Assembly: GCA_003223895.1 (NCBI GenBank) | Contig: QHXD01000004.1 | Coordinates: forward strand, 866-33,065 | From: Acidobacteriota bacterium | GTDB taxonomy: Bacteria; Acidobacteriota; Terriglobia; 20CM-2-55-15 | Length of the DNA: 32,200 bases | Direction: 5' to 3' | The notes under the pieces: model-generated | Told to the model about the DNA's origin: nothing | Seen by the model: only the letters and a program-made list of their open reading frames with translations | The model's database searches: none | In this document: positions 3,324 through 27,905 of the stretch, piece by piece | Layout: every line of letters starts with the position of its first letter | Numbering within the stretch: position 1 is the stretch's first letter | Translations under genes and position numbers: made by a program

Positions 3324-3713
3324 ATGCCGAAGTCGCCACATTCCGTTCTCAGCCGCCGCGAGAGGCAAATCATGGACATCGTTTATCGCGTCGGCCGTGC
3401 GACCGTCGGTGAGGTCATGGCCGAGCTCTCGGGGGAGCCCGCCTATTCCACCGTTCGAGCGCAGCTCCGTGTTCTCGAGGAGAAAGGCCAGCTTCGCCAC
3501 GAGGAGCACGGTCTCCGCTATGTATACATTCCTGCGATTCCCCGCCACACGGTCCGGCAATCCGCACTGAAGCACCTGGTCGATACATTCTTCGAAGGCT
3601 CCGCTGAAAAGGTCGTGGCGGCGTTGCTCGGAAGGGAAAGTTCCAGAATCTCAGAAGAGGAATTGGAGCGGATGGCGCAATTAATCGAGAAAGCGAGGAA
3701 GGAGCGTAAATGA
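3324..3713 (+). CDS. BlaI/MecI/CopY-family winged-helix transcriptional repressor
   Basis: 129 aa. The N-terminal L-S-xRE-QIMDIV...ATVGEV...YSTV...L..LEEKG motif is typical of the Penicillinase_R family. The stop overlaps the next ATG (ATGA at 3710-3713), the usual pairing with a BlaR1-like gene. Confidence 0.85.
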
Positions 3714-5344
3714 TCAAAGCTTCGCTAATCCTCGCCGCCGCTTTTTGCATTGCCAGGCTCTTCTGCGGGCGTTCTGCGGCCGAACGCCACATCCTCTGGG
3801 CAGCTGCGATCGGCTCAGCCGCGCTTCTGCCCCTGCTGGCTTCGTTCCTACCTCCATGGCAGCCTGAACTCGTGAGCAGAGTCGCTGCGGTGCTGCCGGC
3901 GATATCCCGGAACGCCGTGCCGCAGGTGTCGACGTTCGGTACCGAGGTCGTCGTACATGCAGAGGGAATCCCGCCCGCCCGATCGCTGGCCTACCTGTTG
4001 TCAGCCATATGGTTTGCAGGCGCCATTATCTCCACCACGCTCCTCATCGCCGCAATTTTCAGGTTGAAACGCTTTGCCGCACGGGCGCAATGCGCGCCGG
4101 ATCCGAGGTGGACAAGAGTTGCCACGGATTTGTCCCGCGCCCTCGGGCTCAAACGAGCAGTTCGTGTTCTGGAAAGCCGCCAGGCCTCGATGCCGGTAAC
4201 GTGGGGCTTTCTCCGTCCCCAGGTACTCTTACCCGCTTCCGCTGCGGAGTGGTCCGACGAGCGGCTGCGCGTGGTACTCGCGCATGAATTGGCGCACGTA
4301 TATCGATTCGACTGGCTCGTTCAGCTTCTGGCAGAAATTGTACGTGCCGTTTACTGGTTCAATCCGCTGTTCTGGATCGCTTCCAGCCGGCTGCATCGGG
4401 AGAGCGAGCGGGCCTGTGACGATGCCGTCGTCAATCTCGGTGTAGATGGCAGGGACTATGCCACCCATCTCCTGGAACTTGCACGCGTGCTGAGAGCTTC
4501 CGACAGGCGATGGTTGCCTGCCTTGGCTATGGCCCGCCAGCCCGATCTTGAAAGGAGGGTTGTCGCCATTGTGGACTCCACCATGAACCGGCGAACGGTC
4601 ACGCGTAGAAGGATATTTGCAGTAATGATCGCCGCATTTTGCCTGGTGGTTCCGCTCGCCGCCATGCGCGCGACCGCGAGACAAGCGGTTCCCACAGTCC
4701 AGCGCATACGGATTGGTGAGTTGCCTTCCGTATCCGAGGGGCCTGTATCTATGCAAACCCCGCCGGAAGTAGTGGTTTACAGCACGCCTCCTTTGTACAG
4801 CGATGAGGCGCGCAGACGTGGCATAGAGGGAGTTGTTACGGCCGAAGTGCACGTGGATGCGAAGGGCAAGGTCAGCGGTTTGCGAGTTGTGAAGGGGCTT
4901 GGCTTTGGCCTCGATCAGAATGCGTTGTTGGCGGTCCGGGATTGGCAATTTGTCGCCGGCAAACGAAACGGCAGTCCTGTGGAAATGACGACCCGGGTCG
5001 ACGTCGAATTCAATCTTCGAAACGAAGAACTCAACGAGATTATCGCGAACGATATGGCACACCGGGTCGGGCCGGACGTGTCTCCTCCGAGAATCATCTA
5101 TCGCGTAGAACCGGAATACTCGGAGAGCGCGAAGGCAGAGCAAATCACAGATACTGTTGTGCTGGATCTCATGATCCGGGAGGACGGGGTGCCTAATGTT
5201 CTGCGAGTCGTCCGGTCACTGCGTTCGGATCTGGATGAAAATGCCATCAACGCGCTCGAACAATGGAGACTGAGCCCGGCGATGAAGGACGGTATGCCCG
5301 TGAAAGTGCGGGTAAACGTGGAAGTGCATTTCAACCTTAAATGA
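3710..5344 (+). CDS. BlaR1-like M56 membrane metalloprotease/sensor fused to two TonB C-terminal domains
   Basis: 544 aa. N-terminal TM helices and the HExxH motif (HELAHV) with downstream ...ERACDD... as in peptidase M56. The C-terminal half has two copies of the TonB_C pattern (PxYxxxAxxxxIEGxVxxxxxVdxxGxV...). AGGAAGGAG precedes the ATG. Confidence 0.85.
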   Translation: MIKASLILAAAFCIARLFCGRSAAERHILWAAAIGSAALLPLLASFLPPWQPELVSRVAAVLPAISRNAVPQVSTFGTEVVVHAEGIPPARSLAYLLSAIWFAGAIISTTLLIAAIFRLKRFAARAQCAPDPRWTRVATDLSRALGLKRAVRVLESRQASMPVTWGFLRPQVLLPASAAEWSDERLRVVLAHELAHVYRFDWLVQLLAEIVRAVYWFNPLFWIASSRLHRESERACDDAVVNLGVDGRDYATHLLELARVLRASDRRWLPALAMARQPDLERRVVAIVDSTMNRRTVTRRRIFAVMIAAFCLVVPLAAMRATARQAVPTVQRIRIGELPSVSEGPVSMQTPPEVVVYSTPPLYSDEARRRGIEGVVTAEVHVDAKGKVSGLRVVKGLGFGLDQNALLAVRDWQFVAGKRNGSPVEMTTRVDVEFNLRNEELNEIIANDMAHRVGPDVSPPRIIYRVEPEYSESAKAEQITDTVVLDLMIREDGVPNVLRVVRSLRSDLDENAINALEQWRLSPAMKDGMPVKVRVNVEVHFNLK

Positions 5345-7946: not shown

Positions 7947-9131
7947 CTACTTGCGCTTTTGAACCAGGGCGTCAATTTCGTCGATTTCCTTGGGAAATGT
8001 CGAGAGGAGGCGGTAACCCGTAGACGTCACAAGTACATCGTCTTCGATGCGGACTCCAAGCTTCTCTTCGGGGATATAGATGCCCGGCTCAACCGTGATG
8101 ACCATGTTGGCTTCGAGCGGCCGGGTCGTTGCTCCGACGTCATGGACCTCGAGTCCGATGTGGTGGCTGGTTCCATGGATGAAATATTTTCCGTAGCCTT
8201 TGGACTCGATATAGCTCTTGGAAGCCTGATGGATTTCGCTAATCGTCACACCCGGCTTCACCTTCGCCATCGCGGCCTTCTGCGCGTCGAGCACGATTTG
8301 ATAGATCTCGCGCTGCCGCGGCGAGAACTTTCCGGAAACAGGATAGGTGCGTGTGACGTCCGCCGCGTAGCCGCCGTATTCCGCGCCGATATCCACGACA
8401 ACGGTATCGCCGGACTCCATGCGCCGCGTATTTTCGTTGTAGTGAAGAATGGTTGAAAACGGCCCGGAACCGACAATGGAAGGAAAGGCTGGACGCTCGG
8501 CGCCATTGTGTCGAAACTCAAATTCGAGCGCCGCTTCAACTTCATATTCCCAGGCTCCCGGGGCAATCTCTCGTGCGGCTGCCTGCTGGGCCTTCATCGT
8601 GATCTGGATTGCTTTCTCGAGAAGGGCGATTTCAGTTCGCGACTTCGTCTGGCGAAGGTAGGCAATATCGCTCTCGGCCTCTTTCAAGCCATATGTGGCC
8701 TTTGCTCGCTCCGAAACTTTTCTCAGTGTCGCGTCGAATTCAGACACCGGCAGGACTTTCGCAAAACCTGTGACTCTTGCTGCATCCGGCCCGGGCCCCA
8801 GCTTTTCGCCCGTCCACCGTTCTTCCGCTGGCTTTCGCTCGGGAATGAAGAGGAACTCCTGCATTGGCTCGGAAACGGCATCCAACAGAAGGATGGCGCC
8901 CGGCTGGTCAAACCCGGTAAGGTAATAGAAATTGCGTTCCTGCTGGTACTCCGTGAGTTCCTGATCCGGCGCCGCCCGCAGCACGAGCACATTTCCCTTG
9001 ATGCGTTCCGCCAGACGCTCCCGCCGGGCCCGGTACTCCGTCAGCGGTTCCTTCTCGATTGCAAACAGCGAGACCGCAGTCAGAAACAACAAACAAACGC
9101 GGGCGAAAGCGGCGCGGCTCGTTCCATTCAT
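7947..9131 (-). CDS. Xaa-Pro aminopeptidase (M24B) with N-terminal signal/anchor
   Basis: Creatinase/AMP_N-like N-domain (F.YLTGF..PGAILLLD) plus the M24 core (DIGAEYGGYAADVTRT.P..GKF...Q...Y......A........PG....I........GYG.YF.HGTSHHIGLEVHD...L...MV.TVEPGIY.....GVRIED.V). The ORF-track entry is trimmed to ATG 9131, which overlaps the upstream GT2 stop (ATGA) and gives MNGTSRAAFARVCLLFLTAVSLFA. Confidence 0.85.
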   Translation of the reverse strand: MNGTSRAAFARVCLLFLTAVSLFAIEKEPLTEYRARRERLAERIKGNVLVLRAAPDQELTEYQQERNFYYLTGFDQPGAILLLDAVSEPMQEFLFIPERKPAEERWTGEKLGPGPDAARVTGFAKVLPVSEFDATLRKVSERAKATYGLKEAESDIAYLRQTKSRTEIALLEKAIQITMKAQQAAAREIAPGAWEYEVEAALEFEFRHNGAERPAFPSIVGSGPFSTILHYNENTRRMESGDTVVVDIGAEYGGYAADVTRTYPVSGKFSPRQREIYQIVLDAQKAAMAKVKPGVTISEIHQASKSYIESKGYGKYFIHGTSHHIGLEVHDVGATTRPLEANMVITVEPGIYIPEEKLGVRIEDDVLVTSTGYRLLSTFPKEIDEIDALVQKRK

Positions 9132-13070: not shown

Positions 13071-13809
13071 AGAGCAAATCCGAAAAATCCTGGACGAATA
13101 CAAAAGGGGCGCTTTGACGCCTGACGAAGCACTCCACCGCCTGCGCTCATTGCCGTTCGAGGATCTCGGCTTCGCCAACATCGATCACCATCGACCCCTT
13201 CGGCAGGGCTTTCCTGAAGTGGTTTTCGGCGAAGGTAAAACGATCGATCAGGTCGCGCGCATCGTCGAATCGATGTACAGGCACGACCATAACATCCTGG
13301 TTACCCGGAGTACCCCCGCGCACTTCGAGCGTGTGAAAAGGATTGCTCCCGAGGCCGAATACCATGAGGGGGCGCGCGCCATTGTTGTTCAAAAAGATAC
13401 GAAGATTCACGGTAAAGGCACAATCCTGGTGGTTTCTGCCGGGACATCCGACATGCCCGTTGCCGAGGAAGCGGTCGTGACGTTGAAGGTGATGGGCAAC
13501 AACATCGATTCCCTTTACGACGTCGGAGTGGCCGGCCTCCATCGATTGCTCGACCGGCGCGAACGCCTGACCCAGGCGCGTGTCTTGATTGTGGTGGCCG
13601 GCATGGAAGGCGCTCTGCCCAGTGTGGTCGGCGGTCTGGTATCGGTGCCTGTCATTGCGGTTCCAACGAGCATCGGTTACGGCGCCAGCTTCAATGGCGT
13701 CGCCGCTCTCCTTGGCATGCTGAACAGTTGTGCCTCGAATGTAACGGTTGTGAACATCGATAATGGTTACGGCGCCGCTGTTGTGGCGAGCCTGATCAAT
13801 CGGCTGTAA
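13063..13809 (+). CDS. larB: Nickel-pincer cofactor biosynthesis protein LarB (PurE-like NaAD carboxylase/hydrolase)
   Basis: 248 aa. N-terminal ...[37 protein letters not shown] and a PurE-like C-terminal half ([21 protein letters not shown]......YDVGVAG.HRLL.......[30 protein letters not shown]). This is the classic LarB signature. Confidence 0.85.
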
Positions 13810-16172
13810 TGGACTTCTCCCTCGACGCCCTCGAGTATCACCGGCTGAAAGAATTGCTCGGCCGCTATGTGTCGACCGATGCGGGCCGCCTCGCGCTTGC
13901 CGGACTCTCGCCGATGCTCGACGAACAGAAGCTCGATGCGGAGCACGCCATTACGGCCGAAGCGATGGCGTACCTGCGAGAGCACCGGGTTCCGTTCAAC
14001 GACATCGCTCTGTTGTCCCAGGCACTGGAGAAGCTCTCGGTTGCAGGCTCCAGTCTGGAAATTGCCGAGATCGAAGCCATCCAATCGTTCCTTTCCCAGG
14101 TCGAAGGTCTTCGGCTTCGCTGGAAAGAGGAGCGTGAGAAGTTTCCGAAGCTCGCGCAGACCGGACAGCGGCTGCCCGATCTGCGGGACCTGGCAAAGCA
14201 CCTTGGCCGCGCCATCCACAATGGTGAAGTCGACGAGAAGTACAGTCCAGAACTCGCGCGTATCCGGCGCGCGCTCGCGGCGTCGCGCTCGCGTTTGACC
14301 GAGAAGCTCGAATCCATCGTCCGGAGTCCGGCATACGCCTCTCAATTGCAGGAACAGCTCGTGACCATTCGAAACGGCCGGTTCGTGATTCCTGTGCGCA
14401 GCGACCAAAAGCGCGGCGTTGAAGGCATCATTCACGGCAGTTCATCAAGCGGCGCGACGGTGTTCATGGAGCCTCTCGCGGTGCTGGAGATGAACAACGA
14501 ACTGGTCCGGTTGCAGGAAGAAGAGCGATATGAGATCGCACGCATTCTTGCTGAGCTGACGGATCTGATTCAGGCAAGCGCCGGCCCGATCGAGTTTGCG
14601 CGCTCGCTGGCCGCTTACCTGGAGCTGGTTTTTGCGAAGGCGCGGTTTGGCCGTGATTTCGATTGTGTTCGCCCGTCCTTTTCGCGAGGACCGCTGCTCA
14701 GTTTGATCAAAGCAAGGCATCCGCTGCTCGAAGACAATTTGAAACGCGAGGGTGCGTCCGTGTCGCCCGTGTCGCTGGACATGGATTCAACTCGAACCGT
14801 TCTGGTCATCAGCGGCCCCAATGCCGGCGGAAAAACAGTGGTGCTCAAGACGGTCGGACTATTGGCCCTGATGGCGCAGTCCGGCATTCCGGTGCCGTCG
14901 GAAGAGGCGGCCCTGCCGATTTTCGATCGAGTGCTTGCCGACATCGGGGATCAGCAGTCCATCACGAATCACCTCAGCACTTTTTCGGCCCACGTTCTGG
15001 CGATCAAGTCGATGGTCGAATCGGCGACTGCCCGGTCGCTGATTCTCATGGATGAGATCGGCAGCAGCACCGAACCCGGGGAGGGGGCCGCACTCGCTCG
15101 TGCCGTCCTCGAACAATTCCGGGAAATCGGCGCTTTGACGATCGCGACAACCCATTACAACCGGCTGAAGCTCTACGCGGAAACGACGGCGGGCGTGGCG
15201 AACGCCGCAATGGAATTCAATGAAATCACTTTGGAACCGACCTATCGCCTGATTCACGGGCTGGCCGGGGCATCGAGCGGTTTGAAAATTGCAGAACGAC
15301 TGCAGTTGCCGGCGAAGGTACTGCAAAAGGCGACCGGATTCCTGGACACGGCTGATGTAGAAGCGGGGCATTATGTCGAGGAACTGAGGCGCAGGATTGC
15401 GGACCTGGAGGGCGAGAAGACGAGATTAGAAAAGGAACGGAAGGAATTCGAGGACTGGAAGCAAAAGGAGTTGGACCAGGTCACCGCGCAGCACAAAGAG
15501 GAGATTGCGAGGGTAGAGAAAAAGCTGGAGCGGATCGTGAAGGAGATGTCGGAGCGGGCGTCGCGGGAACTGGAGTCCGTGCGTGACGACTCGGTCAAGA
15601 AGTACCAGAAGAAACTGGCAAGTGTTAAGGAGCAGGCGACGTCGGAAATCAAAAGGGAAAGAGAAAAGATCCAACCGGCGTCGAAAACTGAGCCTTCGCC
15701 CGGCGGGCTTCCGGGGCGCATCCAAGTCCCGCTGAGAGAGGGACAGGCCGTACGAGTTGCTTCCCTTGGAGTAACTGGGATAGTTACATCATTAAAAGGC
15801 GACGGTGCTGAAGTGCTGGTGGGGAACATCAAACTACGTAGGCCTGTCGCCGATCTCGAGGTGATCGAGAACCCGCCGATCCGATTGCCCCAGGGAGTTC
15901 ACCTGACTGTTGCATCCAAGCAGCTGGAGAAGAACGAACTCAACCTTCTGGGGCGTAGAGTCGACGAAGCCGTCGATATGACGGACAAATTCCTGGACGA
16001 TGCCTTCCTGGCACAGATGAACCAGATTCGAATCGTCCATGGAACCGGAACTGGCGCCCTGCGGCAGGCGATAACCGAATTGCTGAGCGGCCACCCGCAC
16101 GTGGCGCGTTTCGAGGCTGCGCCGCAGAACCAGGGCGGCCGCGGTGTCACCGTGGTCACGTTGAGGGAATAA
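13809..16172 (+). CDS. mutS2: Endonuclease MutS2 (MutS domain, Walker A, coiled coil, C-terminal Smr domain)
   Basis: 787 aa. ...ARHPLL......PV.L........VISGPNAGGKTV.LKT.GL..LMAQSG..VP...... ...DE.G.GT.P.EGAAL; a long E/K-rich coiled coil; C-terminal Smr (.L.LLG.RV.EA....DKFLD.A.L.....IRIVHG.GTGALR.A...LL..HP.V). The ATG overlaps the larB stop (TAATG). Confidence 0.92.
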   Translation: MDFSLDALEYHRLKELLGRYVSTDAGRLALAGLSPMLDEQKLDAEHAITAEAMAYLREHRVPFNDIALLSQALEKLSVAGSSLEIAEIEAIQSFLSQVEGLRLRWKEEREKFPKLAQTGQRLPDLRDLAKHLGRAIHNGEVDEKYSPELARIRRALAASRSRLTEKLESIVRSPAYASQLQEQLVTIRNGRFVIPVRSDQKRGVEGIIHGSSSSGATVFMEPLAVLEMNNELVRLQEEERYEIARILAELTDLIQASAGPIEFARSLAAYLELVFAKARFGRDFDCVRPSFSRGPLLSLIKARHPLLEDNLKREGASVSPVSLDMDSTRTVLVISGPNAGGKTVVLKTVGLLALMAQSGIPVPSEEAALPIFDRVLADIGDQQSITNHLSTFSAHVLAIKSMVESATARSLILMDEIGSSTEPGEGAALARAVLEQFREIGALTIATTHYNRLKLYAETTAGVANAAMEFNEITLEPTYRLIHGLAGASSGLKIAERLQLPAKVLQKATGFLDTADVEAGHYVEELRRRIADLEGEKTRLEKERKEFEDWKQKELDQVTAQHKEEIARVEKKLERIVKEMSERASRELESVRDDSVKKYQKKLASVKEQATSEIKREREKIQPASKTEPSPGGLPGRIQVPLREGQAVRVASLGVTGIVTSLKGDGAEVLVGNIKLRRPVADLEVIENPPIRLPQGVHLTVASKQLEKNELNLLGRRVDEAVDMTDKFLDDAFLAQMNQIRIVHGTGTGALRQAITELLSGHPHVARFEAAPQNQGGRGVTVVTLRE

Positions 16173-16256
16173 TTCGGGGACAGACGTATAAATCACCTAA
16201 TTACGTCCAAAGGTTCCTGATACGTAATTAGGTGATTTATACGTCTGTCCCCGAAT
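16172..16256. repeat. Palindromic hairpin element, copy A (35-bp perfect arms, 15-nt loop), truncated on its right by the IS
   Basis: ATTCGGGGACAGACGTATAAATCACCTAATTACGT (16172-16206) is the exact reverse complement of 16222-16256. It begins on the last base of the mutS2 TAA. It is 33/34 identical to the arm at 26051-26084. Confidence 0.9.
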
Positions 16257-16273
16257 CCCCGATTAGTCGATAA
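16257..16273. repeat. IS left terminal inverted repeat
   Basis: CCCCGATTAGTCGATAA; reverse-complement match to 18005-18021 (one mismatch, at position 2). Confidence 0.7.
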
Positions 16274-16380
16274 CAAAGGGATGGAAGAAAAAGTATTGGC
16301 GATTGGCGCAGGCAGAGTCGCTGTTTTGTTGTGAAGTGGGGAAACCAGAGGGACCACCCTTGGGGTGATGCGCAGCGAAG

Positions 16381-17820
16381 ATGCGCGGCATGATGAAAGC
16401 GAGACGCCGATCCCCGACAATGAATCCTCTGCCGTTCCAATTAGACCCCGAGCCAGCAACGGAGACATTGACCAGCTATGGGGGAGTGCCGCTGGTAGTG
16501 CGGGCCTTCCGATCACTGGGTTTGCCCGAAGCGGTGGCTCAGCATGTGCGAATCAAGCAACGAGACAGAGGCTATGACGAAGCGACGTTTGTGGAGAGCT
16601 TCGTGATTCTGAATGCGGTGGGAGGCGAATGCCTGGAAGACTTCGAGCAACTGCGAGCCGACGCGGGATTGGCCGAGTTGGTCGGCCATGGGATGCCGTC
16701 GCCGGAGGCGGCGCGGAATTTTCTGTATGCGTTTCATGAAGACGCGAAAATCGAAGAGGCTCAATTGCGGTTGAAAGGGGACGAGAAAGCCTATATCCCC
16801 GACGAGACGATTCCGTTGCAGGGATTGGGAGCGGTGAACCGGACAGCCATTGCGGAAGTGGGAAACCGTTGTCCGGACCAGAAGATCGCGACGGTCGATC
16901 AGGACGCCACGATCATCGAAAGCCGGAAGCAGGAGGCCAAGGCGACCTACGAGGGAGAACGAGGCTATCAGCCGATGCTGGCGGTGTGGGCCGAGACGGG
17001 ATTGATCTTGTCGGATGAGTTTCGAGACGGCAATGTGCCGGCGATGATGAGCCCGCTGAGTGGCGCGAAGGCGGCCTTTGCAGCGCTTCCCAAGACGGTG
17101 GAAACGTTCTATTACCGGGGCGATTCGGCCAGCCACGAACACGAACTGATGGACTGGTTGCGCAATCCATTGCGCGAGGGCGGTCCAGCCGGTTTGATCG
17201 GATTCGCCATATCGGCGCGGATGAGCGCGGAGTTGGCCAAAGCCATCGACGAGGTTAAGGAAGACCAATGGCAGATGGTGAAGGAGGAAACAGACGCGAT
17301 CCGATCCTGCGCGGAAGTCGCGTTTGTCCCTGGCGAACGCAGTGAAAAGAAGGATAGTCAACCGCTGCGTTACATCGCTATTCGGATCGAGAAAAAACAG
17401 GGACATCTCTACGACGACGGTTCCCGAATCCGCCATTTTGCCGTCGTGACCAACATTGAAGGATGGACGGCCCCGAAACTGATCCAGTGGCATCGCGAAA
17501 AAGCCGGCACAGTCGAGATGGTGCATGACATCCTGAAGAATGAACTGGCAGCCGGAGTTTTGCCGTGCGGTCGCTTCGGGGCCAATGCCGCATGGTTGCG
17601 GCTGGCCGTGATTACCCATAACGTACTGACCGCTCTGAAGCGGCTGGCGTTACCGGCAGAGCATCTGTCGGCACGGCCCAAGCGCCTGCGTTTTCTGTAT
17701 CTCAATCTGGCGGGCCGGGTGTTGCATCACGCTCGCAGCCTGCATCTGCGGTTGGCCGCGCTGCTAGCGCGCATAGGAGACATGGTCCAAGCGTTTGAAG
17801 CCTTGCCTCTCCGCGTCTAG
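16381..17820 (+). CDS. IS1380-family DDE transposase
   Basis: 479-aa ORF. It is collinear, from memory, with ISEcp1-type transposases: LTSYGGVPLV (cf. LTSNAGL), VDQDATIIES....A...Y.G.RGYQP (D ... GY.P), FYYRGDSASH (second D), and REKAGTVEMVHDILKNELA.G.LP...FGANAAWLRL.VITHNV (E/K ... AN.A ... NL block). The start could instead be ATG 16420. Confidence 0.85.
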   Translation: MRGMMKARRRSPTMNPLPFQLDPEPATETLTSYGGVPLVVRAFRSLGLPEAVAQHVRIKQRDRGYDEATFVESFVILNAVGGECLEDFEQLRADAGLAELVGHGMPSPEAARNFLYAFHEDAKIEEAQLRLKGDEKAYIPDETIPLQGLGAVNRTAIAEVGNRCPDQKIATVDQDATIIESRKQEAKATYEGERGYQPMLAVWAETGLILSDEFRDGNVPAMMSPLSGAKAAFAALPKTVETFYYRGDSASHEHELMDWLRNPLREGGPAGLIGFAISARMSAELAKAIDEVKEDQWQMVKEETDAIRSCAEVAFVPGERSEKKDSQPLRYIAIRIEKKQGHLYDDGSRIRHFAVVTNIEGWTAPKLIQWHREKAGTVEMVHDILKNELAAGVLPCGRFGANAAWLRLAVITHNVLTALKRLALPAEHLSARPKRLRFLYLNLAGRVLHHARSLHLRLAALLARIGDMVQAFEALPLRV

Positions 17821-18004
17821 CTCCAGCCCGAACGCCAGACAACTCAATTTCGGTGCTCGCTCACGGCGCAGCGTTGTCTGCGAAGACCTAAAAATTCCGT
17901 TCATCGCCCTCGCTGACCACATCACACTACTCTCATCTGAATCTTGGCTGCCCGATCTCCAAAAAATCCGGGCACATTCTCGCCCGTTTAGCCTTACGGC
18001 TGCC

Positions 18005-18021
18005 TTATCGACTAATCGGAG
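18005..18021. repeat. IS right terminal inverted repeat
   Basis: TTATCGACTAATCGGAG, the reverse complement of the left IR apart from one mismatch; followed by CCGAAT. Confidence 0.7.
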
Positions 18022-18036
18022 CCGAATTATCCCCAC

Positions 18037-22955: not shown

Positions 22956-22963
22956 GGCGAGAC

Positions 22964-23127
22964 GAAAGGCGGATCTGAAATCTGCAACCGCCGATCGCCA
23001 ATTTGTAATAAGAAGTTCACAATTTTGAATTAGTTAGCCCTTATCGATTTTCGAGAACCGCTGAGCAAATTTGGAATCTTTGTTACAAATTGGCGATCGG
23101 CGGTTGCAGATGTCAGATCCGCCTTTC
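22964..23127. repeat. 164-bp inverted-repeat (MITE-like) element filling the rnhA / dinB-family convergent gap
   Basis: The 45-nt arms 22964-23008 (GAAAGGCGGATCTGAAATCTGCAACCGCCGATCGCCAATTTGTAA) and 23083-23127 are reverse complements at 44/45. They surround a 74-nt AT-rich spacer. The element starts 9 nt after the rnhA stop and ends 3 nt before the dinB-family stop. Confidence 0.85.
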
Positions 23128-23129
23128 TT

Positions 23130-23612
23130 TCAATCCGACCTTATCAGCCGTTTCAAAAGCTGGATCTGGCCCGCGTGGTAAAGGTCGTGGGCGGCGACGC
23201 CCGTGATGAGAGCGAGATTGCTGACTTTGGTGCCCGTGGGTTTTTGAGGTAGAGTTTTGGGATTTAGGTTCGCAATGGCCGACCGGAGCGAGCCGTGGAT
23301 GTCGTCGAGCAGCGCGACATCCTGCTTCCAGGCCGACTGTGTCGCCTCCTGAGGGCGGGAAAACCAGTTGGAACCCTTTAACGCGAACGAACCGGCGGGT
23401 GCTCCCACCAACCGCCGATGCACAACGTATTTCCAGTACGCCGCGTGGACGACAAGCTCCCAAATGTTATGACGACCGGATTGCGGGCGCCGGGCAGCCT
23501 CATCGGCGGTCACATTGCGGAGGGACCCGCGGAGGTTTGTGCCATGCCATGACTTATGGTTGTAGGCCTGGTCGACGACGTCCAGCAGGACTTTGATCTC
23601 GGGCCCGGGCAT
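23130..23612 (-). CDS. DinB-family (DinB_2, four-helix-bundle metal-binding) protein
   Basis: 160 aa. ...SWHG.NL.G.L..V....A..RP..G.H.IWELV.H...W ... and C-terminal ...G.A.HD.YH.GQI..L.R, typical of the DinB/YfiT-like superfamily. Confidence 0.75.
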   Translation of the reverse strand: MPGPEIKVLLDVVDQAYNHKSWHGTNLRGSLRNVTADEAARRPQSGRHNIWELVVHAAYWKYVVHRRLVGAPAGSFALKGSNWFSRPQEATQSAWKQDVALLDDIHGSLRSAIANLNPKTLPQKPTGTKVSNLALITGVAAHDLYHAGQIQLLKRLIRSD

Positions 23613-23634
23613 GACGAAGTATAATCACTGGATC
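23613..23634. promoter_or_regulatory. 22-nt divergent control region with overlapping -10-like boxes (leuS and the dinB-family gene); both mRNAs would be leaderless
   Basis: The whole intergenic region is GACGAAGTATAATCACTGGATC. TATAAT (23620-23625) ends 9 nt before the leuS ATG 23635. On the other strand, TGaTTATAC / TATACT ends 5-6 nt before the dinB-family ATG (23612). No SD is possible for either gene. Pattern only. Confidence 0.3.
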
Positions 23635-26019
23635 ATGTCTGACGAAAGTTATAACCCTGCAGAGACCGAACCGAAGTGGCGTGAATACTGGATTTCAAAC
23701 CACCTGCACGAGGCGCGCGACGACGATCCCCGGCCCAAATATTACTGTCTTGATATGTTTCCCTATCCCTCCGGCTCAGGACTGCACGTAGGGCACTGGC
23801 GAAGCTACGTTCTGCCGGACTGCTGGTCGCGATATAAACGATTGCAAGGTTTCAACGTACTCCATCCTATGGGGTGGGACGCCTTCGGCTCCCCTGCGGA
23901 GAATGACGCCATTCAAAAGGGGATTCATCCGCGCGTCGGTACCCAGCGCAACATCGAGAACTTCAAACGTCAGTTGCACGAGATCGGCGCGATGTACGAC
24001 TGGTCGCGCGAGGTCAACACAACCGATCCGGACTACTACAAGTGGACGCAGTGGATCTTCGTGAAAATGTTCAAAGCCGGCCTTGCCTATAAGACGTATA
24101 TGCCGGTGAACTGGTGCCCAAGCTGCAAAACCGGCATCGCCAACGAAGACGTCGTCAACGGCCGATGCGAGCGCTGCGGTACGGAAGTCACGAAAAAAGA
24201 ACTGAACCAGTGGATGCTGCGTATTACCAAGTACGCCGACAGGCTGCTGGAAGGTCTCCAGAAGCTGGACTGGCCGGAAAAGGTCAAGACCATGCAGACC
24301 AACTGGATCGGCCGTTCTGAAGGCGCCGTAGTCACATTTACCGCGATCGCAGCCGATGGTACCGAGCACCCGTTGAAGATTTTCACAACCCGTCCGGACA
24401 CGCTGTTCGGGGCCACATACATGGTCATGGCGCCCGAGCATCCGTTGGTGCCGGAGCTCACCTCGCCCGCTCAGGCCAGGAACGTTCAGGCTTATGTCGA
24501 GACAGTGAAGCATGAGAAGGACATCGATCGCGCCGCCAACATCGAGAAGACCGGTGTTTTCACGGGCGCGTATGCGCTCAATCCGGTCAATGGCGAGAAG
24601 ATTCCGATATGGATCGCCGACTACGTTTTGATGGCTTACGGCACGGGTGCAATCATGGCCGTACCCGCGCACGACGAACGCGACTACGAGTTCGCAAAGA
24701 AGTTCGGCCTGGAAATCCGGGAAGTGATTTCCTCAAAGCAGGGCATTGATAAGGAGGCGTTTATCGGTGAAGGAACGATGATCAACTCCGGGCAGTTCAC
24801 CGGAACGCCATCCGATGAAGGGCGCAAGGCCATCGTTCGCTGGCTCGAAAGCAAGGAACTCGGCAGCGCGACGGTCAACTACAAGCTGCGGGATTGGGTC
24901 TTTTCGCGCCAGCGGTACTGGGGCGAGCCGATTCCCATCATTCATTGCTCGATTAATTGCGGTCTGGTTCCCGTTCCTGAAAGCGATTTGCCGGTTCAAT
25001 TGCCCGATGTCGAGCGGTATCAACCGACAGGAACTGGAGAATCGCCGTTGGCCGCCATCAAGGACTGGGTGAACGTGAAGTGTCCCAACTGCGGAAACCC
25101 GGCCGAGCGCGAAACCGATACGATGCCCCAATGGGCCGGGTCCTCCTGGTACTTCCTGCGCTATGCGTCACCGAAAGCGAAGGACGCTCTGATCACTGAA
25201 AAAGGAAAGGAGTGGTTGCCGGTCGATCTGTACGTCGGAGGCGTCGAGCACGCGATTCTGCACCTGCTTTACGCCCGTTTTTACACCATGTTCCTGCACG
25301 ATATCGGCGTCGTGGATTTCGACGAACCGTTCGAGCGGTTGTTCAACCAGGGAATGATCACGCATGTCGGCAAGAGCGGGAAAGCCGAGAAGATGTCGAA
25401 GTCGAAGGGCAATGTTGTGAATCCCGACGATCTTGTCCGGCAGTTTGGATGTGACTCGCTTCGCATGTATGAATTGTTCGTCGGGCAGCCCGAACTCGAC
25501 GCCGAGTGGAACGACCATGGCATAGAGGGTGTATACCGATTCCTGAAACGTGCCTGGCATTGGACATTGATGCACAACGGCCGGTGGAACGCCTCTCCTC
25601 CCCGGGAGATGCTCGTTCAACGACACCTGTTAATAAAGAATGTCACCGAGCGCCTGGAGACGTTTCGCATGAATACGATCGTCAGCTCGTTTACCGTTGA
25701 GGCGTTTCTGGTTGCGATTGCGCCGTTCGTGCCGCACTTTGCGGAAGAGCTGTGGCAGCGGACGGGGCATCAACCGTCGATCTTTCTGCAGAAATGGCCG
25801 AAGTGGGATGAGGCGTACACCACGTTCGATACGGTTACGGTTGCCGTGCAGGTCAATGGAAAGCTTCGCGGGACGGTCGTCGTCAAAGCGGAAGCGCCGG
25901 AAGAGTCGGTCCTCGAGGCCGCGACGAAGGATCCCACCATTACCCGTTTCCTGGACGGGAAGCAGATCCGTAAGAAGGTCTATGTTAAGAACAGGATTCT
26001 GAACCTGGTAGTGGGGTAA
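23635..26019 (+). CDS. leuS: Leucine--tRNA ligase
   Basis: Trimmed to ATG 23635 (MSDESYNPAETEPKWREYW... is the standard LeuS N-terminus). HIGH-type motif PYPSGSGLHVGH, CP1 editing domain (TTRPDTLFGATY.V.APEH), zinc motifs CxxC...CxxC, KMSKS, and the C-terminal domain ...VQVNGKLRG. Confidence 0.95.
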   Translation: MSDESYNPAETEPKWREYWISNHLHEARDDDPRPKYYCLDMFPYPSGSGLHVGHWRSYVLPDCWSRYKRLQGFNVLHPMGWDAFGSPAENDAIQKGIHPRVGTQRNIENFKRQLHEIGAMYDWSREVNTTDPDYYKWTQWIFVKMFKAGLAYKTYMPVNWCPSCKTGIANEDVVNGRCERCGTEVTKKELNQWMLRITKYADRLLEGLQKLDWPEKVKTMQTNWIGRSEGAVVTFTAIAADGTEHPLKIFTTRPDTLFGATYMVMAPEHPLVPELTSPAQARNVQAYVETVKHEKDIDRAANIEKTGVFTGAYALNPVNGEKIPIWIADYVLMAYGTGAIMAVPAHDERDYEFAKKFGLEIREVISSKQGIDKEAFIGEGTMINSGQFTGTPSDEGRKAIVRWLESKELGSATVNYKLRDWVFSRQRYWGEPIPIIHCSINCGLVPVPESDLPVQLPDVERYQPTGTGESPLAAIKDWVNVKCPNCGNPAERETDTMPQWAGSSWYFLRYASPKAKDALITEKGKEWLPVDLYVGGVEHAILHLLYARFYTMFLHDIGVVDFDEPFERLFNQGMITHVGKSGKAEKMSKSKGNVVNPDDLVRQFGCDSLRMYELFVGQPELDAEWNDHGIEGVYRFLKRAWHWTLMHNGRWNASPPREMLVQRHLLIKNVTERLETFRMNTIVSSFTVEAFLVAIAPFVPHFAEELWQRTGHQPSIFLQKWPKWDEAYTTFDTVTVAVQVNGKLRGTVVVKAEAPEESVLEAATKDPTITRFLDGKQIRKKVYVKNRILNLVVG

Positions 26020-26030
26020 AAGTACCAGTC

Positions 26031-26156
26031 AGCACGTGGCCGCGGGCTTTAATTCGGGGACAGACGCATAAATCACCTAATTACCTTAAGTCACCATTGA
26101 TTGTAATTAGGTGATTTATGCGTCTGTCCCCGAATTAAAGCCCGCGGCCACGTGCT
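26031..26156. repeat. 126-bp palindrome: hairpin element copy B nested in a locus-specific GC-rich stem (54-bp perfect arms, 18-nt loop)
   Basis: 26031-26084 (AGCACGTGGCCGCGGGCTTTAATTCGGGGACAGACGCATAAATCACCTAATTAC) is the exact reverse complement of 26103-26156. The inner 34 nt of each arm equal copy A apart from one compensated position. The element lies between leuS (stop 26019) and mscL (the stop codon shares nt 26156). Confidence 0.92.
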
Positions 26157-26602
26157 TAACTCGCCTTTTCCAGCAAGACCTGGGACGTGCAGTTCGGGCA
26201 CCTGGTAGCCTTCAGCGGTATCAGCGACACACAATACGGGCATTCCTTCGTAGTGACGGCCGCGGCTGCGGGCTGGGCTCTCAGTTTATTGATCTGCCGG
26301 ACTAACAAAAACACCGCAAATGCCACGATCAGGAAGTCCATGATCGAATTAATGAACAGGCCGTAGTTGATGGTCGCGGCGCCGGCCGCCTTGGCTTCGG
26401 CCAGTGTAGCGTGGTGCGCACCCGACAGGTCGATAAACAAATTCGAAAAATCCACCTTGCCAAGAACACGACCGATCGGCGGCATGAGCAAATCGCTAAC
26501 GAACGACGTTACAATCTTCCCGAACGCGGCGCCGATGACCACGCCCACGGCGAGATCCAGCACGTTTCCTTTTACCGCGAATTCTTTAAAATCTTTCAGC
26601 AT
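26156..26602 (-). CDS. mscL: Large-conductance mechanosensitive channel with C-terminal CxxC...CxxC extension
   Basis: Trimmed to ATG 26602 ([38 protein letters not shown]......DFS.L...... is the canonical MscL N-terminus/TM1). 148 aa. The tail is [24 protein letters not shown]. Confidence 0.9.
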
Positions 26603-26612
26603 AGTGGCACCC

Positions 26613-27905
26613 TCATTCCACTCCAGCGAGCGACAATAAGATGCCCAGTGCAACATTGATTCCTTTCACGCTCGCCGGTTTTTCCACATCGATCCATTCG
26701 TCCAATGCATGAGCCCGGCCACCCCGGCCACCCGAATCGATAGTGATGGCAGGAATCCCCATACTGATGGGAATGTTCGAATCGGTGCTGCTCATGCTGT
26801 AGTACGGAGTCATACCAAAGCCTTTGATGACGGCCGTGGCGGTCTGAACAATTGGAGCGCTAATCGGTATTTCTCCGGAAGGGCGGTCACCGATCAGCTT
26901 CATGTCCATCTCGATCCTGCCTTGACCGGTAGATCTTGCCCTGTTCTCCTCGTCCGCTGCTTCGTGCATTAACCCGAGGAGCGTTTCTGCCGCCTTATTC
27001 AATTCCTCCCGCGATTCCGACCGTATGTCGACTTCCATCCATGCCTCATAAGGAATTGAGTTGACCGAGGTTCCACCGCCGACAACGCCGACGTTGAAAG
27101 TCGTTCGAGGCCGCACCGGGACCTGCATCTTCGAGAACTTATTAATGGCGTTACCCAGAGCGAATGCAGGATTCACAATTCCGAATGCGCCGTAGCTGTG
27201 TCCGCCGGGCCCTCTAAAAGTCACCTTGTATCTTTTGCTTCCGAGGGCGCCATTGCTGACCTCATTGCCGGCACCGGTACCGTCCATGGAGATGAACATT
27301 TTGATTCTGTCTTTATACGGGCCCTTCTGAAACAGGTACTTCATCCCGCGCAGGTCGCCCGGGCCTTCTTCGCCAACGTCGCCGACAAACAGGATGTCGC
27401 TTGCAGTCCGGATCTTCGCGGCGTCCATCGCGCGGATCATCGCAAGCAGGACGGCGAGAGCGCGCGAGTCATCTCCGATTCCCGCCGCTGACAGCCTCGT
27501 GCCCGTGCGTTTCACTTTGACATTGGTTCCTTCCGGAAAAACCGTGTCCAGATGGGCGGCGATGGCGATGAGTGGGGCTCCGCGAGTGCCTTTCCGGATG
27601 CCCATCACGTTGCCCTCCGCGTCCATTTCGACATTCACCAGGCCGGCTTGCCGCAGCATTTCCAGATATGCCGTGCCGCGCTTCTCTTCTTTGAACGGAG
27701 GCGCTTCAATCTCGGTGATCTGGATAGTCTCGCTAATGATGCGATCGTGATCCTTGTCGATGAAATCCTCGGCGGATTGGAATTTCGGATTATTCAGCAC
27801 ACGCTGGAGATCGGGGGCCTGAGCCCGGACAAAACCAGAGAACAGAAGCCAGGCGGCGATGGACCCGGCAATGCAGGCGCCGGCTTTAGCCGGCGCGGTC
27901 TTCAT
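26613..27905 (-). CDS. Exported M20-family metallopeptidase (peptidase T/M20A-like)
   Basis: About 430 aa. ...IEAPPF.E..R..Y......GL..V..D..GNV.G...G......I...AHLDTVFP ... AGIGDD..A......... and VGEEG.GDL.G ... indicate a dinuclear metal-site pattern (H, D, E-E). The signal-like N-terminus is [33 protein letters not shown] 27905 is preferred (GGAGG 11 nt upstream) over ATG 27926; either start overlaps the pyrC 3' end. Confidence 0.8.
27875..27896. repeat. GC-rich TTTA-loop hairpin spanning the pyrC stop codon and the first codons of the M20 gene; 21-nt exact repeat of 2553-2573
   Basis: Stem GCGCCGGC (27877-27884) / GCCGGCGC (27889-27896) with a TTTA loop. The pyrC TAA (27888-27886 on the minus strand) lies in the loop. 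AGGCGCCGGCTTTAGCCGGCG is identical to 2553-2573. Confidence 0.7.

Follow-up and report, generated by a model that had tools for sequence, protein, structure and literature searches.

REPINs are doublets of repetitive extragenic palindromic (REP) sequences that form hairpins and are mobilized by REP-associated tyrosine transposases, or RAYTs (Bertels & Rainey 2011, PMC3116915; PMC3337134). According to two further reports, the RAYT-like TIRYT tyrosine transposases include a distinct acidobacterial clade, and TIRYT or TnpA_REP subclass 2.1 genes, those of Acidobacteria included, are flanked by inverted repeats that carry a GGGGWSAS (GGGG[AT][CG]A[CG]) box (PMC3733652, PMC6006769). Di Nocera et al. 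2013 describe REP dimers inside long palindromes for which 'empty targets' could not be found (PMC3733652). Inverted repeats are also subject to template switching, which is reported to homogenize and expand their arms and to invert their spacers (PMC7202029, PMC8604942, PMC13100816). Here we analyze a long hairpin, and a second copy of its core, in a 32,200-nucleotide stretch of an Acidobacteriota genome (Terriglobia; GenBank contig QHXD01000004.1), which we call the window. We conclude that the core is probably a non-autonomous, REPIN-like palindromic mobile repeat that was recently inserted, and that its outer stem was made mainly by inverted copying of the flanking DNA.

Two other groups of elements invite comparison. 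IS1397/ISKpn1, IS621, and other members of the IS110 family are autonomous insertion sequences (ISs) with a strict specificity for REPs, inserting in the loop of the REP hairpin. [quoted passage not shown]

The element in the window is built like a REPIN, with two inverted units and a short, less conserved spacer that together fold into one long hairpin, and like REPINs it appears to belong to a dispersed, mostly extragenic, non-coding family, related repeats of which flank genes for Y1 (HUH) REP-associated tyrosine transposases. It is unlike a REPIN in that the single arm is not a small GTAG-tagged palindrome, and in that a tblastn search of 0.85 Mb found no cognate transposase of the window's subfamily. 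We know of no REPIN described with mirrored, locus-specific flanks. Compared by published consensus, the element also resembles the TIRYT or TnpA_REP subclass 2.1 'TIRtrons' in its GGGG[AT][CG]A[CG] box and its acidobacterial hosts, and TIRtron repeats likewise form dimers at places remote from the gene for the transposase; these papers do not report mirrored flanks (PMC3733652, PMC6006769). We file the element next to REPINs and TIRYT-associated repeat dimers.

Results

A long perfect hairpin between leuS and mscL and its second copy behind mutS2

The gap between the convergent leuS and mscL genes is almost entirely occupied by one hairpin, copy B (Table 1). Its arms (26031-26084 and 26103-26156) pair at 54 of 54 positions, as the initial annotation of this DNA had it, and outside them complementarity is at chance level. 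The same annotation spoke of a perfect palindrome of 126 bp; this is true of the arms but not of the center, where 18 nt (26085-26102) are non-palindromic. It further called the size unusual for a palindrome stably maintained in a bacterial chromosome; this is overstated, given this asymmetric center and the family members of similar or greater size, which are common. Folding of copy B as single-stranded DNA gives -73.6 kcal/mol (shuffles -16.3 +/- 2.6; z = -22), and as RNA -111.6 kcal/mol.

The inner 86-88 nt of copy B (26050-26137) are present again at 16170-16257 as copy A, behind mutS2. The arms of the two copies are alike save for one compensated C/T difference, and their spacers differ. 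Near the outer end of each arm, in copy A as in copy B, lies the box GGGGACAG, which fits GGGG[AT][CG]A[CG]. Copy A lacks AGCACGTGGCCGCGGGCTTT and AAAGCCCGCGGCCACGTGCT, the outermost 20 nt of the two arms of copy B; palindromy does extend 20 bp beyond the shared core into locus-specific sequence, as had been noted. The first bases of copy A form the mutS2 stop codon TAA (16170-16172) at the junction. An IS1380-family element (transposase of 479 aa, NCBIfam 237 bits; inverted repeats C(C/T)CCGATTAGTCGATAA) has inserted into copy A, its target there being the terminal CCGAAT, now a 6-bp duplication at 16251-16256 and 18022-18027. With the IS taken out, copy A reads GGGAATAATTC[core]GAATTATCCCC, and the complementarity of its flanks that had been proposed on conceptual excision is restored.

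For the hairpin, Rfam 15 gave no family at the gathering threshold, only sub-threshold matches to microRNA precursors that are typical of long hairpins; the sole match above threshold in the window is a tRNA. A terminator search between 25800 and 26400 found no terminator-like site on either strand. The T-run nearest to copy B, at a distance of 10 nt from the stem, comprises 4 nt. With a stem-loop plus U-tract on neither strand of this interval, a Rho-independent terminator was rejected.

Both copies are insertions at sites that are empty in a close relative

The closest syntenic relative is L121, a soil contig from the Joint Genome Institute (JGI) whose LeuS is 92% identical to that of the window. 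The two are collinear with 88.7% nucleotide identity over 18.3 kb, and the collinearity is broken only by core A with its IS, by core B, and by a 174-nt palindromic insert (22956-23129). Between leuS and mscL, L121 has no core and reads TAG-AA-CGCGGGC-TTTA-GCCCGCG-GTCC..., a 7-bp GTAG-REP hairpin with the mscL stop codon in its loop; this is the simple hairpin that the initial annotation had predicted for an empty site. At that place the window reads CCGCGGGC-TTTA-[ATTC...GAAT]-TAAA-GCCCGCGG, with core B at the edge of the TTTA loop of the L121-type hairpin. Between mutS2 and dnaG, L121 reads GAGAGAGTAGCGGCAACAGGACTTGACA, and core, IS, and hairpin are all missing, contrary to the pre-existing hairpin that had been supposed there. 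Both copies in the window were inserted after the split from the nearest sampled relative. The other LeuS relatives (L123-L129) have lost leuS-mscL synteny and hence do not polarize site B.

Empty and filled states were compared at four sites, namely the two in the window, the L135 locus described below, and L117 against L146 (Table 1). Each of the four is no more than about 20 nt from a stop codon, and one of them is a hairpin loop. The hexanucleotide AAATTC is already present at one empty site (L135) and not at the other three. At L117 the insert has extended arms (GTAGTGTCC...GGACACAAC) with an 11-bp direct repeat on either side, and the ABC-transporter gene, cut by 17 nt, now ends in the element arm as ...VVS* (8407-8440). 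The possibility that L079, L096, and L117 are orthologous loci was rejected, as their gene ends differ and L146 places GTAGTGTCC in the inserted unit.

Short REP hairpins of the kind found in L121 are common at gene ends in these Terriglobia. Their GTAG-tagged consensus is GTAGTC-GCGGGC-TTTA/TAAA-GCCCGC-GTTC, with the loop in both orientations, and a pattern that includes GCCGGC-stem variants (window 2557 and 27879) has 27 matches in 0.92 Mb of collected sequence. The three hairpins of the window with which copy B had been compared as ordinary ones (258-273, 2557-2572, and 27879-27894) do exist, but they are themselves members or variants of this REP family. Other long hairpins occur as well. 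Downstream of leuS each relative carries a different one: an ACAGAG-rich hairpin of 95 nt in L122 (5132-5226), a GTAG-REP doublet in L125 (3945-4023), and an imperfect hairpin running from stop codon to stop codon in L128 (3935-3995). Palindromic elements seem to have a hotspot here. The 174-nt insert of the window, which is unrelated to the core, fills the space that separates two convergent genes, RNase H-like and DinB-family, with arms of about 45 nt (GAAAGGCGGATCTGAAATCTGCAACCGCCGATCGCCAATTTGTAA and its complement); the gap there measures about 16 nt in L121 and 0 nt in L122.

The core belongs to a dispersed Terriglobia repeat whose flanks are mirrored

The core is a dispersed repeat of Terriglobia in which two inverted arms of about 35 nt, AATTCGGGGACAGACGYATAAATCACCTAATTA, surround a variable spacer of 15-20 nt. 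A metagenome scan with the pattern GGGGACAGACG-N40-70-CGTCTGTCCCC returned at least 120 stretches, of which 80 were listed, all from soil-type metagenomes; the 11-mer common to the subfamilies was a requirement of this pattern. The arm of the window, AATTCGGGGACAGACGYATAAATCACCTAA(T/A)TT, was found in at least 42 metagenomic copies, and the family figures rest on these copies among the matches listed (at least 42). Counted from the GGGG box, their stems pair perfectly over a median of 30 bp. From copy to copy the arms differ by about 1 nt in 27, each difference being compensated, and the spacers are highly variable around a loose TCAARG...TTGA motif. The family arm has neither an internal hairpin nor a GTAG tag. 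Together with the two copies in the 32-kb window, the copies in soil metagenome contigs stand mostly at gene 3' ends, and in a crude count of open reading frames most palindromes adjoin the 3' end of a gene.

In a species-representative genome collection, a degenerate pattern found five loci in three metagenome-assembled genomes only, from Ca. Sulfopaludibacter and Terriglobia; the exact 29-mer arm had no match in this collection because the inner arm end varies. The window LeuS is 92% identical to a Terriglobia protein, and its relatives are Terriglobia; a look-up of the window MscL returned no record of it. Viral contig and plasmid collections gave no match to the repeat, and a literature search by repeat sequence returned nothing relevant.

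When the flanks of the 42 listed copies are compared across the core, their complementarity starts from 0.90 at position -6, has values of about 0.7-0.8 between -7 and -11 and of about 0.55 between -12 and -17, and has fallen to background by about -25. The sequence information in these flanks is about 0 beyond -8. The mirroring is therefore locus-specific; it is strongest beside the core, decays monotonically outward, leaves no unpaired loop remnant, and is a trait of the whole family. A control set of 83 other GGGGACAGACG hairpins from the same assemblies gave no mirrored-flank signal, which argues against an assembly effect. Cataloguing the flanks, as the initial annotation had advised, bore out the palindromy; a target duplication of fixed length was rejected after a systematic search found none that is consistent in about 40 copies.

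At several loci the mirrored flanks include entire REP loops on both sides of the core: TTTA/TAAA at window B, TATG/CATA at L065, and stem, loop, and 3 nt at L087. The outer stem at window B measures 17 bp, against 7 bp in L121. With a whole loop on both sides and a stem of this length, simple insertion in a 4-nt loop is insufficient to account for window B. In the oriented flanks GTAG occurs in 21 of 80 cases and CTAC in 5 of 80, and GTAG terminates the extended arms of the subfamily of L079, L096, and L117.

The arms might instead be the terminal inverted repeats of a DDE-type MITE, moved for example by a transposase that duplicates TA or AATT, with the flank symmetry reflecting a preference for palindromic targets. 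Terminal inverted repeats of 35 nt would suit such an element, as would the TA/AATT-like palindromic junctions TAATTC...GAATTA of most copies and the 11-bp direct duplication at L117, with weaker ones at L096 and L079. However, the lack of a consistent target duplication speaks against it, and mirrored flanks of 20-30 nt reach far past any target symmetry that a protein could impose. No parent IS with these ends was found in 0.9 Mb of collected sequence, the adjacent IS1380 element has unrelated ends, and the spacer is hypervariable where the arms are identical. We consider this identity highly doubtful and rejected it: the inverted repeats are there, but a consistent duplication and, in the 0.9 Mb, a parent IS were not found.

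Filled and empty alleles of one locus reveal de novo inverted duplication

The origin of a mirrored flank can be followed at a polymorphic locus, where the empty allele L135 and the filled alleles L136-L143 and L071 are 99.4-99.7% identical on either side of the element. The empty allele reads ...CGCGAAAAATGGGGTCGTAAAACAAATAAATTC / ATTTGCCTTCCAATGTAGTCGCGGGCTTTAGCCCGCGTT / CAGCAGCAG.... In the filled alleles the left flank is kept, and 39 native nt, including a GTAG-REP hairpin, are replaced by the core plus GAATTTATTTGTTTTACGACCCCATTTTT. This added sequence exactly repeats, in inverted form, the 29 nt of the left flank, with the final five codons and the stop of the upstream gene among them, and it ends, by 2 nt of microhomology, where the convergent gene has its stop codon. 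Because GAATTTATTTGTTTTACGACCCCATTTTT is the inverted left flank and takes the place of native DNA, the mirrored arm is new and not a pre-existing hairpin. Inverted duplication has thus occurred de novo at this locus, with loss of native DNA. Besides L071, the filled allele is present in no fewer than eight contigs, which stem from different samples and from JGI assemblies or the European Nucleotide Archive (k141 contigs). Among the contigs compared for the orientation of the 19-nt spacer (L136-L143, L140, L144, and L071), seven carry GAATCAACGGCGATTTACC, one of them with a single substitution, and three carry its reverse complement; the spacer has undergone inversion. L145, considered as an outgroup for the polymorphism, is not syntenic.

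These alleles bear on the proposal of the initial annotation that both copies had been inserted at the exact center of existing hairpins. Insertion as such is borne out by the two empty sites in L121, but hairpin centers are not the general target: L121 has no hairpin at site A, the L117 element lies inside the 3' end of a gene, and the L135 site is 20 nt upstream of a REP. In its strict form, in which the element integrates at the apex of a terminator or REP hairpin and the outer stem is the old hairpin unchanged, the proposal draws on the CGCGGGC-TTTA-GCCCGCG of L121 exactly at the place of core B, on the long stop-to-stop hairpins and GTAG-REPs or REPINs that are common at gene ends in these genomes, on the core of L093 that stands between two inverted, slightly diverged GTAG REPs, and on the enrichment of GTAG over CTAC in oriented flanks. 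An earlier report likewise has REP dimers 'inserted within' palindromes (PMC3733652). We nevertheless consider it improbable. The empty L135 allele holds no palindrome that matches the mirrored flank of the filled allele, L121 is without a hairpin at site A, and the L117 element went into coding DNA. Full 4-nt loops on both sides of the core, with no unpaired loop remnant beside it, are not expected of an unchanged hairpin, nor are the monotonic outward fall of complementarity and a stem that is 17 bp long in the window and 7 bp in the relative. More convincing in general is the other possibility raised in the initial annotation, that snap-back or repair from a template extends the palindrome outward; this accounts for most of the stem. 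The locus-specific outer stem is probably, in the main, not an old terminator.

The polymorphism also bears on whether the hairpin is a selected structure, such as a bidirectional terminator, a stabilizer of mRNA 3' ends, or an RNase III site, in which compensatory changes keep the stem perfect. Its position between convergent genes would fit, palindromes of the family often span from stop codon to stop codon, the RNA fold is very stable, and arm differences between copies are always compensated. Yet, besides the missing U-tract, the 35-bp core stem alone far exceeds the stability that any terminator needs, and the mirrored flanks are perfect, not merely compensated, and include copied coding sequence. 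The element is moreover polymorphic among near-identical strains, and some copies lie between divergent genes or within genes. Selection for such a function is a highly improbable origin of the structure.

At these hairpins a number of metagenome contigs break or turn back on their own sequence, and these look like inverted-repeat assembly artefacts. Probable cases of fold-back or of palindromes at contig ends were set aside: L083 (1245-1427), L144 (2806-3052), and L130/L131 (contig ends). The view that mirrored flanks in general are fold-back errors of de Bruijn assemblers at inverted repeats can point to these cases, as the palindrome reaches the contig end in L144 and L083 and L130/L131 break at the hairpin. 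In the window and at most loci, however, the palindrome stops within the contig and is bordered by unique genes on either side, the same 29-nt mirrored flank recurs in at least eight contigs from different samples, and the control family from the same assemblies is without mirrored flanks. The chance that the mirroring is an artefact appears close to negligible.

Related repeats flank Y1 transposase genes

Repeats with GGGGACAGACG are associated with Y1 transposase genes: two such genes, in L002 and L041, are bracketed by inverted GGGGACAGACG units (Table 1). Both belong to sister hairpin families that share GGGGACAGACG, not to the subfamily of the window. No DnaA_C-like C-terminal helix-turn-helix was detected in the two proteins. 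We infer that a Y1 transposase moves the window's subfamily. Two further candidates for a transposase link were rejected: the single arm in L134, taken for a transposase flank, is a decayed copy, and the genes between paired hairpins in L014 and L016 encode no transposase.

In the sister hairpin families (GGGGACAGACGGRACGTTCCCC...), short tandem repeats of the junction stand just beyond the hairpin (L002 2487-2582, L005, L007, L014, L018, L041 9500-9560, L047, and L118). The repeats are about 11-15 nt each and comprise GGGGAC plus flank; in one array the unit GGGGACGACAC, of about 11 nt, is present about nine times, twice in degenerate form. Between two genes of L027 (3084-3135) lies a perfect palindrome of 52 bp that has no spacer and is centered on AAATTC/GAATTT. 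It is possibly an excision footprint, the remnant expected of a mirrored-flank copy after precise GGGG...CCCC excision.

Table 1. Coordinates of the hairpin copies, neighboring genes, compared insertion sites, and related features (window numbering unless a contig is named)
Feature	Location	Strand	Remarks
Whole hairpin copy B	26031..26156	.	54-nt perfect arms + 18-nt spacer
Left locus-specific mirrored flank AGCACGTGGCCGCGGGCTTT	26031..26050	.	left half + loop of a GTAG-REP-type hairpin (CGCGGGC-TTTA); homologous hairpin in L121
Left core arm AATTCGGGGACAGACGCATAAATCACCTAATTAC	26051..26084	+	GGGGACAG box at 26056-26063, matches GGGG[AT][CG]A[CG] of TIRYT-associated repeats
Asymmetric spacer (loop) CTTAAGTCACCATTGATT	26085..26102	.	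reverse complement bears the loose family motif TCAAnG...TTGA/TTAAG
Right core arm	26103..26136	-	GGGGACAG box on minus strand, 26124-26131
Right mirrored flank AAAGCCCGCGGCCACGTGCT	26137..26156	.	final base = first base of mscL stop codon (TTA on + strand)
leuS (leucyl-tRNA synthetase)	23593..26019	+	stop codon 11 nt ahead of hairpin
mscL	26156..26605	-	stop codon adjoins hairpin
Copy A core	16170..16256	.	arms 16171-16206 and 16222-16256, spacer 16207-16221
mutS2	13809..16172	+	gene upstream of copy A
IS1380-family insertion sequence	16257..18021	+	inserted in right end of copy A; transposase 16381-17820; not in L121
Displaced right end of copy A CCGAATTA + short mirrored flank TCCCC	18022..18034	.	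cf. GGGAA at 16165-16169; relative has CGGCAACAGGA
Insertion site, window B			element in a REP loop
Insertion site, window A			element at a stop codon
Insertion site, L135			element 13 nt past a stop codon, 20 nt ahead of a REP
Insertion site, L117 vs L146			element 17 nt before stop codon of ABC-transporter gene
GTAG-tagged REP members/variants	237-294, 2550-2573, 27872-27895; L121 12434-12465; L135 2834-2860		also at many other loci
Y1_Tnp / REP-associated tyrosine transposase gene	L002 ~3453-4184	-	bracketed by inverted GGGGACAGACG units; in-frame stop
Y1_Tnp / REP-associated tyrosine transposase gene	L041 8807-9626	+	bracketed by inverted GGGGACAGACG units; frameshift

Discussion

We propose the following course of events. 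Copy B would have entered a short GTAG-REP hairpin of the leuS-mscL gap at its TTTA loop, and copy A would have inserted at the mutS2 stop codon, a site without a hairpin. Once a long perfect inverted repeat was in place, one flank would have been copied, inverted, to the other side, the likely routes being a template switch of the polymerase inside the hairpin (snap-back) or, in the course of integration, synthesis primed by the hairpin. Such copying would perfect the palindrome, extend it outward, and at times delete or duplicate adjacent DNA; the same process would also invert the spacer. Events that harm neighboring genes would be trimmed by selection, so that extension halts there; this would account for palindromes that reach from one stop codon to the other. 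Template switching as the copying mechanism is suggested by these patterns, and either flank of copy B may have served as the template.

Several observations weigh against this account. The polarity of the L135/L136 polymorphism is our reading of the two alleles and does not come from an outgroup, and L121 does not show which arm of copy B is original, which leaves room for a longer ancestral hairpin. Some mirrored flanks are common to unrelated loci (GTAGTGTCC in L079, L096, and L117, and CAGCCCGTGG in L060 and L064), so part of the outer stem can travel with the element instead of being made locally. Both Y1 genes found, in L002 and L041, are pseudogenes, and a tblastn search of 0.85 Mb including the window found no Y1 gene flanked by the subfamily's own arms (AATTCGGGGACAGACGYATAAATCACC); the putative transposase link for the subfamily draws on the 11-mer imposed by the search pattern and on the published consensus. 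Finally, the junctions are untidy: 39 nt are deleted at the L071 locus, L117 has a direct duplication of 11 bp, and about 11 nt are replaced at window A. This is not the precision that transposition of the IS200/IS605 type gives. Deletion, duplication, and replacement of this kind are better fitted by a replication or repair step than by a precise two-ended transposase reaction.

In a variant that we consider possible but unlikely, the mirrored flank comes directly from integration, not from subsequent decay and repair, and is an 'inverted target-site duplication' whose length varies. A hairpin-shaped single-stranded element would be joined at one end only, for example by an HUH/Y1 enzyme; its folded-back 3' end would prime synthesis along the newly joined flank, yielding an inverted copy of the target, and microhomology would then serve to re-join the DNA.

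Flank copying at an inserted repeat, which we favor, has its nearest mechanistic parallel in the template-switch mutagenesis of quasi-palindromes, where arm homogenization, outward expansion, and spacer inversion are reported and all three are seen here (PMC7202029, PMC8604942, PMC13100816). Those cases concern short repeats and a few nucleotides, whereas here 20-30 nt are mirrored around a mobile core of 35 bp and adjacent DNA is deleted or duplicated. The landing of copy B recalls the REP-targeting IS elements, which also insert in hairpin loops, but a loop was the target at only one of the four characterized sites. Like Correia/NEMIS, ERIC, and RUP, the element is a short palindromic intergenic repeat able to alter gene ends and transcripts. 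A palindrome-associated transposable element (PATE) derived from IS200/IS605, which would have unlike subterminal hairpins at its two ends, no terminal inverted repeats, and no target duplication, was rejected as an identity, since the element is one symmetric hairpin and its junctions show deletion or duplication; nor does it have the fixed insertion tetra- or pentanucleotide of a PATE, as AAATTC pre-exists at one empty site and is absent from three.

Our results suggest that flank mirroring explains the missing empty targets of REP dimers nested in palindromes, which the earlier survey describes as not found (PMC3733652). If the integration-coupled variant is true, an inverted target-site duplication would be a new signature of transposition; it would account for the undetected empty 'target palindromes' of these dimers, and it would allow the element to lengthen its arms and to take host sequence that it had captured, including stop codons and codons of C termini, to other loci. 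The filled and empty alleles of near-identical strains provide a natural before-and-after case of palindrome growth and spacer inversion, which are otherwise followed in reporter-construct studies. These elements break or fold back metagenome assemblies and can pass for regulatory RNAs. They have deleted native REP or terminator hairpins, copied the last codons of one gene across to the other side, supplied a stop codon (mutS2), and truncated a gene (the L117 ABC transporter). Long 'terminator-like' intergenic hairpins in these abundant soil bacteria are not necessarily terminators and may be the footprints of a mobile palindrome that rewrites its surroundings.

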